Assembly (NCBI RefSeq): GCF_056712565.1
Contig: NZ_CM160072.1
Length of the DNA: 64,000 bases
Direction: 5' to 3' (one strand)
Shown here: positions 18,793 to 57,544 of the stretch, piece after piece
Position numbering within the stretch: position 1 is the stretch's first letter
Layout of the letters: each line of letters opens with the position of its first letter
Program-made: the position numbers and the translations under genes
The notes under the pieces: generated by a model
The model's input: only the letters and a program-made list of their open reading frames with translations
The model's database searches: none
What the model was told of the DNA's origin: nothing

Positions 18793-19572
18793 TCAGATAA
18801 AGTGCTTACGCAACCGTTGAGAGAGGAAATCCAGCAGGCTGACCGTGACGATGATGAGCACCATCAGGGCGCAGGTTTGCTGGAACTGGAAACCGCGAAT
18901 CGCTTCCCACAGCGTGACGCCGATCCCGCTCGCGCCAACCATACCGACGACGGTCGCCGAGCGGACGTTGGATTCGAAGCGATAGAGAGAGTAGGAAATC
19001 AGCAGCGGCATGACCTGCGGTAGTACGCCGTAGAGGATCTCTTCCAGCTTGTTGGCACCGGTAGCGCGAATGCCCTCCACCGGGCCGGGTTCAATCGCTT
19101 CTACCGCTTCGGAAAGCAGTTTGGAAAGTACGCCGGTGGTGTGGATAAACAGCGCCAGCACGCCAGCGAACGGGCCGAGGCCGACGGCGACCACGAACAG
19201 CATGGCGAAGACTATTTCGTTAATGGCGCGGCAGGCGTCCATCAGGCGGCGTACAGGTTGGTAGACCCACCACGGTACCAGGTTTTCAGCGCTCATCAGG
19301 CCGAAGGGGATGGAGAGAACCACCGCCAGCGCGGTGCCCCAGACGGCGATTTGCAGCGTGACGGCCATTTCGGTGAGGTAATCCTGCCACTGGCTGAAAT
19401 CGGGCGGGAAGAAGTCGGCGGCGAACGTCGCCATGTTGCCGCCATCTTTAATCAGCGTAAGCGGTGCCATTTCCGCGCCCTGCCACGAGACGACCAGCAC
19501 GGCGATAACAACGGCCCAGCTCAGAAGCGAGAACCAGCTGCGCTTGGGTGGGGCGATGGTGATGGTTTGCAT
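18793..19572 (-). CDS. phnE: Phosphonate ABC transporter permease PhnE, apparently intact
   Basis: Continuous ORF 18793..19635 with hydrophobic segments; start taken at MQTITIAP (cat 19570-19572); no frameshift. Confidence 0.88.
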
Positions 19573-19587
19573 GTTTGGCTCCGGTCT

Positions 19588-19674
19588 GTAGGCCGGATAA
19601 GGTGCTTGCACCGCATCCGGCATCAACGTCTGCACATTGTCGGATGCGACGCCGGGGCGTCTTATCCGACCTAC
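19588..19674. repeat. BIME: two inverted REP units between phnE and phnD
   Basis: gtaggccggataaggtgcttgcaccgcatccggca and tcggatgcgacgccggggcgtcttatccgacctac. Confidence 0.8.
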
Positions 19675-20718: not shown

Positions 20719-21507
20719 TCAGGCAGCTTTCGCGTTCTCTTCGACGCGGTTAATGCTGCGGTAGAGATGGTCAAAACGTTCGTTATCAAACTGTTGGCTG
20801 CAGCCGTCGTAGAAGACGTGCCCCTGGCGCAGGGCGACGATGCGTTCGCAGTAGCGCAGGGCGTAATCCACCTGATGCAGCGTGACGACCACGGTAATGC
20901 CGTCGTTCTGGTTGATGTCGCGCAGGGTGTCCATCACGATGCGTGCCGATTCCGGGTCCAGCGAGGCGATGGGTTCGTCAGCGAGAATGACCTTCGCCTG
21001 CTGCATCAGCGCGCGGGCAATCGCCACACGCTGTTGCTGGCCGCCGGAGAGTGTGGAAACGCGTTGATGGGCAAAGTGCACCATGCCAACGCGGGTCAGC
21101 GCCTGTAACGCGCGCTGTTTCTGCTCGCGGGTGAAGTAGCTAAAACAGGTTCGCCAGAATGGCGTGCTGCCGAGCGCGCCAATCAGCACGTTCTCCAGTA
21201 CGCTCAGGCGATTCACCAGGTTGAATTGTTGAAAGATGTAGCCGGTATGGGCGCGGCTTTTACGGATATCGCGGGCCAGACGGCCTTCGCGCTGGACAGT
21301 GCGGCCCAGCAGCTCGATATGGCTACCGACAGATTTATCGCCGGTAATCAAACCGCTTAAGTGACGTAAAAGGGTGGATTTTCCGGAACCCGACGGCCCA
21401 AGCAGAGCCACCATTTCACCATGATGAATGTTCAGATCAACCGCGTGCAGCGCCTGATGCTGATTGAAGGTTTTGGCGAGCTTCTCGACACGGATAATCG
21501 TTTGCAT
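20719..21507 (-). CDS. phnC: Phosphonate ABC transporter ATP-binding protein PhnC
   Basis: 262-aa ORF, Walker [10 protein letters not shown]; first gene of operon. Confidence 0.93.
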
Positions 21508-21544
21508 GATGCAGCCTCCCTAAAAAAGTGGCTCCATCGTGGCG

Positions 21545-21584
21545 GATTATTGTGACGATTTGGTTAATTAAAAGTGACTAACAG
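21545..21584 (-). promoter_or_regulatory. Putative PhoB-binding Pho box upstream of phnC
   Basis: On the minus strand CTGTTAG-TCAC-TTTTAAT-TAAC-CAAATCG-TCAC-AATAATC: 7-nt units spaced by 4 nt with ~11-bp periodicity, 40-80 nt upstream of the phnC ATG. Confidence 0.5.
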
Positions 21585-21639
21585 ATGAAGAGTTAACGGG
21601 AATTCGATGACAGTGCGGGAGGGTGGGCCTCCCGGCGGG

Positions 21640-22083
21640 TTATTGCGTTGGCTGTTGTTTGACGACATTAATCATCCACGGTACGCCAAATTTATCGGTG
21701 ACTTTGCCGAAGCCATGCGCCCAGAAAGTTTCCTGCCAGGCCATTTCGATTTTTCCGTTAGCGGCAAGGTTGTCAAACCAGCGTTTTCCTTCTTCGACCT
21801 GTTGCGAATCGAGCACCAGCGTAAAGCCGGAGTAGCTGGCTTTTCCTGACGGTATAGCATCGCTCATCATGATGTCGCTTCCTGCAATGCGCACGTTGGC
21901 ATGAGCGATGGCGGTATCGGGAAATTGCATTCCGGAAGGGCAGTTTTCGGCGCTGTCCTGCGCTGATTTCGGCATTTCGCCGAAGCTGATTTTATAGAGC
22001 AGTTCCGCGCCCAACGTACGTTGATAATAGGCAATCGCGTCGGAACAGTTACCGGCAAAAGAGAGGTAGGGACTTAACGGCAT
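21640..22083 (-). CDS. yjdN: PhnB-like / glyoxalase-fold protein YjdN
   Basis: 147-aa ORF MPLSPYLSFAGNCSDAIAYYQ... Confidence 0.85.
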   Translation of the reverse strand: MPLSPYLSFAGNCSDAIAYYQRTLGAELLYKISFGEMPKSAQDSAENCPSGMQFPDTAIAHANVRIAGSDIMMSDAIPSGKASYSGFTLVLDSQQVEEGKRWFDNLAANGKIEMAWQETFWAHGFGKVTDKFGVPWMINVVKQQPTQ

Positions 22084-22148
22084 GATGGTGACCTCAGTTA
22101 AGAGAAGCCCGTTAAGTGTAGTTCGAAATTTATACAGATGAGAGGGAA

Positions 22149-22228
<80 letters not shown>

Positions 22229-22242
22229 CGATCACAATACAA

Positions 22243-33013: not shown

Positions 33014-33775
33014 TCAGGCGACAGTGCGTTCTCTGTGCTGACTAACATAATGCAGCGGCGTCATACCGTAGAAGTCTTTAAAGACAGAAATAAAGTACGA
33101 CGTACTGTTGTAGCCGCAGGACTGTGATACCTGAGAGATATTTTTACCGTCCATCATTAATTCATTTACGGCATAACGCATGCGGCAGGTGGTGATTATT
33201 TGGCTATAACTGGTGTTTTCGCTTTTCAGCTTTTTCTTTAACAGACTTGGGCTAAGACATAAACAACTGGCTACCATACTAAGATTCCAGTCTTTGTGGA
33301 TATCGCTTTCAATAATTTGATAAACGCTGTCACTTACACAATTACGTAACATATACATCATTAGTGAAAGGAATTTTTTACTGTCGAGAAAACGGGATAG
33401 CACAGTGAATAATAATGCACGTGTTCGTTCCTTTTCTGACTCAGTTTCAGCGGGCATCATGCTATGCTGCGCGGCAACGCGAAAGACGTCTGGCGTCAGG
33501 CATGGCAGGGTGAGGATGGGCGTAGCGCTACGTTGCCATACTGGTATTTGCGAGAGATCTTTATTCAGAAACCGGAGGTAATCTTTGATGATGTCGTGAC
33601 TAATATGAGCAACCAAAGTGTTATTAAGAGAGGAGACGTCGATAATATTATTTTCACAATTTAATAACGCCATGTGGTTAGCTTTAAGGCTAATAGGTTC
33701 TTTCCCATTCACCCTTATCCAGACATCTTTTTCAGTCAATAAAACAATACAAGGTTGGTCGCTGCAAATCCTCAT
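33014..33775 (-). CDS. adiY: AraC-family regulator AdiY
   Basis: 253-aa ORF with C-terminal AraC HTH. Confidence 0.9.
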   Translation of the reverse strand: MRICSDQPCIVLLTEKDVWIRVNGKEPISLKANHMALLNCENNIIDVSSLNNTLVAHISHDIIKDYLRFLNKDLSQIPVWQRSATPILTLPCLTPDVFRVAAQHSMMPAETESEKERTRALLFTVLSRFLDSKKFLSLMMYMLRNCVSDSVYQIIESDIHKDWNLSMVASCLCLSPSLLKKKLKSENTSYSQIITTCRMRYAVNELMMDGKNISQVSQSCGYNSTSYFISVFKDFYGMTPLHYVSQHRERTVA

Positions 33776-56980: not shown

Positions 56981-57544
56981 TTATCCCCACCGGTCCCATC
57001 TCACCAGGTTGTTGATGATAATTTTATTACTAAATTTGCAGGGCGGCCTGGTTTTGTAATCCCGGCTCAGTCCTCTGAAGGCATTGATCTCCCCCCGCTC
57101 AAACAGCTCATCCTTATTCTGGTGCAGTTGTTTAAATGTGCTCAGAATGTTCGCTTCGCTGATTTCCGGAAAATTATCATATTCCAGTGACCTGAACCCT
57201 GTATCACGTGCCTGTGCATCCATTAAGGAAAACATCCCGGAACGCTGCATCAGGTTACGCCAGATTTCGCGCTCAAGATTCCGGGTAATGGCTTTCATTG
57301 CTGTTTCTGGTTTCTCCATCATCCAGCAACCACAGCGAAAATTCTGTTTCATCGCCCAGTCCGGGGCGGCTTTACCGCCAATATTTTCCGTCAGTGCTGA
57401 GATTTCTGTCAGTTGCCGGATAAGCGTGTCGATTTGCAGTAGTGTACTCTTTCGTACAGCCAGGATGTGTCTGATACTTGTGGAACAGATAACGGCTGTA
57501 TGCCCGTTGACCGCGTTCGGGTGGGGGATTGTGATATCTGACAT
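56981..57544 (-). CDS. Hypothetical island-terminal protein (possibly DUF4942-like)
   Basis: 187-aa ORF, last gene before the island boundary; family assignment uncertain. Confidence 0.45.
   Translation of the reverse strand: MSDITIPHPNAVNGHTAVICSTSIRHILAVRKSTLLQIDTLIRQLTEISALTENIGGKAAPDWAMKQNFRCGCWMMEKPETAMKAITRNLEREIWRNLMQRSGMFSLMDAQARDTGFRSLEYDNFPEISEANILSTFKQLHQNKDELFERGEINAFRGLSRDYKTRPPCKFSNKIIINNLVRWDRWG

Follow-up and report, generated by a model that had tools for sequence, protein, structure and literature searches.

PhoB~P dimers bind direct repeats head-to-tail, contact region 4 of sigma-70 and recruit RNA polymerase to promoters that have no -35 element. A two-box arrangement is found at the pstS promoter. 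For the phn operon of Escherichia coli, PhoB control has been textbook knowledge since about 1990, and the original paper mapping the phnC promoter is reportedly that of Makino et al. in J Bacteriol, 1991. According to published work, the phn operon forms a single transcription unit under phosphorus starvation. A Pho box is defined as at least two 11-bp direct repeats, each with a CTGTCAT-like 7-nt core and an A/T-rich 4-nt spacer (PMC3465305, PMC4447250).

In E. coli K-12, the binding of PhoB upstream of phnC has been located by two genome-wide studies. ChIP-seq places the peak centre at position 4325211, which is position 21553 of the window (the whole stretch of 64,000 nt analysed here), and calls the site ATTAACCAAATCGTCACA (Fitzgerald et al., 2023; PMC10294691). 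The ChIP-chip call, AATTAACCAAATCGTCAC, lies at -53.5 relative to the start codon and shows a log2 change of 8.26 (Yang et al., 2012; PMC3465305). In low phosphate, the phnC RNA value is 32,470 in the wild type and 13 in the delta-phoB mutant, and loss of phoB also lowers the occupancy of phnC by sigma-70 more than 2-fold (PMC10294691). This PhoB-dependent occupancy is consistent with the recruitment model. In gel shifts, PhoB~P binds a phnC promoter fragment with a KD of 1.7 uM, about 7-fold more weakly than the phoB promoter (Gao and Stock, 2015, 2018; PMC4447250, PMC6194859). Of five Pho promoters, that of phnC shows the fastest off-rate and is the last to switch on, and the output of a phnC-yfp reporter climbs with the PhoB level (PMC4447250, PMC6194859). 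PhoB control of the phn operon through this site is already known, and nothing reported here is new in kind. Binding, PhoB dependence, affinity and sigma-70 occupancy come from this literature; our analysis provides the register of the repeats, their statistics and their conservation.

The window belongs to an E. coli chromosome. A 601-nt query around the site matches E. coli ATCC 11775 at 100% identity and is found in 5414 of 5426 complete E. coli genomes. The 40 nt flagged by an earlier, sequence-only reading sit in the 132-bp spacer between yjdN and phnC, 38-77 nt upstream of the phnC ATG (21507). The genes and signals that bear on this spacer are the following.

20719..21507, minus strand: phnC, the phosphonate ABC transporter ATP-binding subunit and first gene of phnCDEFGHIJKLMNOP (262-aa ORF; RefSeq annotation of the identical ATCC 11775 sequence).
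21640..22083, minus strand: yjdN, the annotated upstream neighbour of phnC.
21515..21521, minus strand: the Shine-Dalgarno sequence AGGGAGG of phnC, read from the sequence, 7 nt ahead of the ATG.
18793..19635, minus strand: phnE, intact, with two tandem GCTGGCGT units here and three in K-12.

On the minus strand, the promoter sequence is ...CACTGTCATCGAATTCCCGTTAACTCTTCATCTGTTAGTCACTTTTAATTAACCAAATCGTCACAATAATCCGCCACGATGGAGCCACTTTTTTAGGGAGGCTGCATCATG. Window positions were converted to K-12 coordinates as x = MG1655 4325165 + (x - 21507). The repeat array is the same base for base in K-12 MG1655, and the whole 132-bp spacer differs at 2 nt. Since both of these lie upstream of the array, the K-12 literature on the phnC promoter applies here. 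The ChIP-seq site ATTAACCAAATCGTCACA is present verbatim at 21568..21551 and the ChIP-chip site AATTAACCAAATCGTCAC at 21569..21552, and the published position of -53.5 is the exact centre of the latter interval. The sequence-only reading had proposed that the operon is under Pho-regulon control through a Pho box. Because the published K-12 binding and expression data (ChIP-seq, ChIP-chip, gel shift, RNA and reporter) concern an identical array, they bear this proposal out. We also notice that the spacer between yjdN and yjdM (22084..22242) is 159 bp here and 657 bp in K-12 MG1655, which carries about 500 bp extra.

We conclude that the site is very probably the PhoB-dependent promoter of the E. 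coli phn operon, which encodes phosphonate uptake and C-P lyase, and that it contains two tandem Pho boxes. The repeats had first been drawn on the minus strand from 21584 to 21545 as 7-nt units (CTGTTAG, TTTTAAT, CAAATCG and AATAATC) separated by 4-nt spacers (TCAC, TAAC and TCAC). These letters and coordinates are right, and the periodicity of about 11 bp is real (0 of 5000 shuffles), whereas the frame is 4 nt off by both matrix and conservation. In the true frame, minus strand 21591..21548 reads TCTTCAT-CTGT, TAGTCAC-TTTT, AATTAAC-CAAA and TCGTCAC-AATA. The half-site cores are exactly 11 bp apart, namely cTTCAT (21590), aGTCAC (21579), aTTAAC (21568) and cGTCAC (21557), and span 21590..21551. 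Each correct 7-nt core consists of a former 'spacer' (TCAC, TAAC or TCAC) and the 3 nt preceding it, which is the source of the periodic signal. The spacers become CTGT, TTTT, CAAA and AATA, which are mostly A/T-rich. The first base of the array is 21591, which means that the flagged interval opens 6-7 nt too far downstream. The CTGT at 21584..21581, which had been taken as the expected start of a PhoB unit, is instead the spacer of the distal box; its likeness to the consensus is coincidental, and it is poorly conserved between genera. Repeats of the kind that define a Pho box are therefore found in the shifted frame and not in the frame first drawn. A generic repeat finder did not detect the 11-bp units at this locus and reported only unrelated short repeats and palindromes, because the units are too degenerate. 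In the classical 7-4-7 frame, the two boxes are as follows.

21552..21569, minus strand: proximal Pho box, AATTAAC-CAAA-TCGTCAC, the main PhoB dimer site, in the -35 region (matrix score 12.86 bits; called by ChIP in K-12).
21574..21591, minus strand: distal Pho box, TCTTCAT-CTGT-TAGTCAC, a weaker and putative second dimer site, 22 bp upstream and in phase (matrix score 6.64 bits at 21590..21573).

We scored these sequences with an 18-position PhoB matrix, for which the ChIP-seq table of Fitzgerald et al. (their Table 1) supplied 58 sites; phnC's own entry was withheld so that the test would not be circular. In the frame first drawn, the three overlapping 18-mers score -0.25, -15.2 and -29.4 bits; shifted by 4 nt, they score 6.64, 5.53 and 12.86 bits. 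The weight-matrix check that the sequence-only reading had suggested is thus positive only after the shift and negative in the frame as drawn. The best dimer in the spacer (21568..21551, minus strand, 12.86 bits) ranks 6th of about 128,000 window positions, and its score is attained by 13 of 5000 dinucleotide shuffles of the spacer. Among the ChIP-bound sites, it falls in the lower quarter (12 of the 58 score lower). By matrix score alone the proximal site is unremarkable, and one dimer alone is only moderately convincing; the modest score fits the measured low affinity. In contrast to the single dimer, the four phased half-sites together (21590..21551) sum to 18.19 bits, a value reached in 0 of 5000 shuffles and the top of the 64-kb window, where the next best sum is 10.42.

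Dimer matches as strong as the proximal site turn up in the window at a rate of about one per 10 kb. Five positions outscore it, within 3088..3153 (plus strand) and at 4847..4864 (minus), 33334..33351 (plus) and 57014..57031 (minus). A weak cluster of phased half-sites also occurs at 3066..3153. With collinearity between the window and K-12 assumed, Table 1 of the ChIP-seq study lists no peak at any of the five higher-scoring positions (PMC10294691). Between 4,245,063 and 4,459,250, phnC is the sole entry of that table (PMC10294691). The five positions are probably chance matches in A/T-rich DNA.

In order to map conservation, we compared the array within E. coli and across genera. Eight E. 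coli alleles (95-100% identity) all keep the four cores, except that one allele has C for T within its TTCAT core. CTGT has become CCGT in three of the eight alleles sampled, and the rest of the changes affect either spacers or the first position of a core, which carries little information. For the cross-genus set, a 17-residue PhnC peptide was back-translated with degenerate codons, and this DNA pattern, scanned against reference genomes, matched 82 loci. Enterobacterial phnC orthologues with 150 nt or more of upstream sequence account for 62 of them (78-95% amino-acid identity). They represent about 15 genera, including Citrobacter, Enterobacter, Kluyvera, Buttiauxella, Leclercia, Lelliottia, Cedecea, Pseudocitrobacter and Yokenella, as well as Salmonella enterica subsp. 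arizonae and diarizonae. Because the exact peptide is required, the retrieval favours close relatives, and because the sequences are mutually related, their agreement is a conservation map and not 62 independent observations.

In 61 of the 62 orthologues, the best matrix match is the aligned proximal box. Its position relative to the ATG is -59 to -63 in 60 of them and, owing to a longer leader, -72 in Enterobacillus. The exception is Salmonella arizonae, where the orthologous ATTAACCAGAGCGTCACA is still present. The proximal box has the form yTTAAC-N5-yG(T/A)CAy in all regions, so that a Pho box is conserved at the orthologous position among these 62 enterobacterial relatives. In a genus-weighted alignment, TTCA (21589-86), G21578, A21575, TTAAC (21567-63), AA (21560-59) and GTCA (21556-53) are invariant or nearly so, whereas the columns between the conserved cores vary freely. 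Within GTCA, the G, C and A are invariant across 63 enterobacterial regions and the T reaches 91%. The CTGT columns carry only 1.08, 0.43, 0.84 and 0.26 bits in the same alignment.

The same 63 regions separate the two frames. Once the frame is shifted, conservation averages 1.45 bits in the units and 0.80 bits in the spacers; in the frame first drawn, the 'units' have 0.86 bits and the 'spacers' 1.64. A scan of the 11 possible unit phases has its maximum at a unit start of 21590/21591 and its minimum at 21585 (0.83 bits), next to the 21584 of the earlier frame (0.86). Of 29 diverse gammaproteobacteria compared by Fitzgerald et al., only a few conserve the phnC site (PMC10294691). Those species are more distant, and our enterobacterial map does not contradict that result.

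We notice that the TTAAC core at 21563..21567 (minus strand; consensus TGTCA) is invariant in 63 of 63 enterobacterial regions, and versions closer to the consensus never appear. An invariant core of non-consensus sequence suggests either that selection keeps the site weak or that the -35 region imposes an overlapping constraint.

Downstream of the proximal box, two further elements can be assigned from their spacing and conservation.

21536..21541, minus strand: CACGAT, a putative -10 hexamer, 10 nt downstream of the proximal box, a layout as at phoB.
21529, minus strand: A, the probable transcription start, 7 nt past the -10-like hexamer and invariant in 63 regions.

Across genera, CACGAT varies to CAGCAT, CACCAT and CACTAT, with positions 1-2 (C, A) and 5-6 (A, T) invariant. 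With a start near A21529, the leader would measure about 21 nt and include AGGGAGG (21521..21515). Our full-text literature search returned no start-site data for the phnC promoter, and a search for the box sequences led to no paper beyond those cited here. If CACGAT is indeed the -10, the proximal box takes the place of the -35 element and ends about 10 bp before the -10. A scan of 21400..21750 found no sigma-70 promoter with consensus -35 and -10 elements, as expected because the promoter is activator-dependent. TTAACC matches the -35 consensus TTGACA at 4 of 6 positions, but its spacer to CACGAT would be 20 nt, and it was rejected as a -35. A terminator scan gave only one terminator-like match, on the other strand and at chance level.

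We propose the following mechanism. Under phosphate limitation, PhoR would phosphorylate PhoB, and PhoB~P dimers would bind head-to-tail on the 11-bp direct repeats, each made up of an A/T-rich spacer and, in the major groove, a TGTCA-like core. The proximal box would occupy the place of a -35 element and end 10 nt before the weak -10 CACGAT (21541..21536). Since there is no -35 match, sigma-70 RNA polymerase could not use the promoter unaided; bound PhoB would recruit it, so that transcription from phnC onward would be switched on. Because its cores are non-consensus, we regard phnC as a low-affinity, late-switching Pho promoter, and both the strictly conserved TTAAC and the weakness of the distal box are in keeping with its low measured affinity and its late onset.

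Upstream of the array lies one further element.

21607..21613, minus strand: CTGTCAT, a lone consensus half-site in phase with the array (half-site score 8.89 bits), with columns more conserved than the flanks.

In 47 of 63 enterobacterial regions, exactly 55 bp (5 x 11) separate its TGTCA core from the GTCAC core of the proximal box downstream. These 47 come from Escherichia, Citrobacter, Salmonella, Kluyvera, Enterobacter, Leclercia, Lelliottia and others; the half-site is absent from Buttiauxella, Cedecea, Dryocola and Yokenella. The position where a dimer partner would be (21602..21596) is not half-site-like. This CTGTCAT may serve as an auxiliary PhoB contact. It lies outside the published 18-mer site calls, is the sole element here for which we found no description, and is apparently unreported. 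In the accessible literature, we found no footprint showing occupancy of the distal box. We tentatively speculate that the array spans six phased 11-bp positions (21613..21548), in which the upstream half-site and the distal box would nucleate cooperative loading of two to three PhoB dimers and so tune a low-affinity promoter to fire late; this is a possibility that we hold with some reserve.

Several other readings of these repeats have to be weighed. The register first drawn (21584..21545) has in its favour that its first unit opens with CTGT like the consensus CTGTCAT, and that the 18-mer at this place, TGTTAGTCACTTTTAATT, is the least bad of its three at -0.25 bits. Older reviews may, we presume, also have drawn the phnC box from CTGTTAG. 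However, the remaining two 18-mers are strongly negative (-15.2 and -29.4 bits), its 'spacers' are about twice as conserved as its 'units' (1.64 and 0.86 bits), and the minimum of the phase scan is only one position away. CTGT itself is replaced by CTTT, CATC, CTTC, CGCC or ACTC in other genera and by CCGT within E. coli, and the spacers of this frame would contain G/C instead of being A/T-rich. Both genome-wide studies place the site in the shifted frame (PMC10294691, PMC3465305), and we consider the first register very unlikely to be the true one. A role for another regulator, such as the operon's GntR-family PhnF, seems just as improbable for the conserved blocks. The short palindromes TTAATTAA (21564..21571) and GTTAAC (21592..21597) could suggest such an operator, and PhnF represses phnDCE in Mycobacterium smegmatis, as a passage of PMC10574752 cites. 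But only E. coli has the TTAATTAA palindrome; the CCTTAAC or ACTTAAC of other genera keeps just one arm, and we reject the idea because the local palindromes are not conserved as palindromes. What is conserved is a set of 11-bp direct repeats, not inverted repeats, and both PhoB binding and near-total PhoB dependence are documented. These arguments concern this array, and an additional PhnF site elsewhere would be compatible with them.

A chance resemblance in A/T-rich DNA, with no regulatory role, could be argued from the frequency of dimer matches of this strength (about one per 10 kb) and from the five better matches that have no listed ChIP-seq peak, collinearity assumed. We give it practically no credence: ChIP-seq, ChIP-chip, gel-shift, RNA-seq and reporter data exist for the identical K-12 sequence, conservation is position-specific over about 15 genera, and the array is matched in 0 of 5000 shuffles. 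A further reading is that the proximal box (21569..21552) alone is functional for PhoB, with the distal repeats and the far-upstream CTGTCAT incidental or otherwise used. ChIP-seq motif calling and ChIP-chip each give one 18-mer (PMC10294691, PMC3465305), the distal dimer has just 6.6 bits and the overlapping middle dimer 5.5 bits, and the conserved block AACTCTTCA (21594..21586) exceeds the length of a half-site. On the other side, TTCA, G21578 and A21575 stay conserved at distances of exactly 33 and 22 bp from the proximal core amid freely varying bases, and neither the rest of the window nor the shuffles match the four-repeat sum. Other Pho promoters, for example phoB, have also been reported with more than one PhoB site (PMC10294691). 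A proximal box acting alone is, in our view, rather unlikely, and two tandem Pho boxes remain the preferred reading.

We notice two further features in the spacer. A G+C-rich hairpin (21616..21634, minus strand; CGGGAGG / CCTCCCG with a 5-nt loop) lies a few nt past the yjdN stop codon. Its folding energy is -12.9 kcal/mol with a z-score of -2.1, it has no U tract and is not called as a terminator, and its loop differs among E. coli alleles. The hairpin may insulate phnC from yjdN read-through. The second feature, AGCCACTTTT (21524..21533, minus strand), which lies over the probable start, is a 9/10 copy of AGTCACTTTT (21570..21579, minus strand), which covers a distal-box half-site and its spacer. 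The two are 46 bp apart and out of the 11-bp phase, and GCCAC...TTT is kept across genera. Their likeness may simply be a start-site or leader constraint.

Our analysis adds little to the control of phn by PhoB, which ChIP-seq, RNA-seq and biophysics have already re-confirmed. For studies of the Pho regulon, the conservation map of the phnC promoter over about 15 enterobacterial genera and the invariant non-consensus TTAAC core are of minor value. The conserved, phased upstream half-site might help to account for the low affinity and late onset of this promoter. In a wider sense, a true regulatory site was located from raw sequence but was mis-framed by anchoring on a coincidental CTGT, and matrix scoring together with cross-genus conservation corrects framing errors of this kind.

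Compared with the phnC Pho box of K-12, the site is the same locus, with no promoter difference except the 2 nt upstream of the array. The operon behind it differs: phnE is a pseudogene in K-12 through an extra 8-bp GCTGGCGT unit, whereas it is intact in this strain, and the phn operon should therefore be functional here. The pstS promoter of E. coli resembles phnC in having several phased 11-bp repeats upstream of the -10, where PhoB recruits sigma-70 RNA polymerase (PMC10294691). In contrast to phnC, its cores are near-perfect TGTCAT, and its ChIP score is 38 compared with 2 for phnC (PMC10294691). The E. coli phoB promoter is alike in its layout, with an 18-bp 7-4-7 box, a 10-nt gap and a -10 hexamer of the form CA...AT. 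It can be written as TTTTCATAAATCTGTCAT + AAATCTGACG + CATAAT, and phnC as AATTAACCAAATCGTCAC + AATAATCCGC + CACGAT; CATAAT at phoB has been treated as the -10 region (Gao and Stock, PMC6194859). The phnC cores are further from the consensus than those of phoB, with TTAAC instead of TGTCA. The KD is 1.7 uM for phnC and 0.25 uM for phoB, and phnC is induced later (PMC4447250, PMC6194859). Unlike at the phoB promoter, no auto-repression by PhoB is seen at phnC (PMC4447250, PMC6194859).
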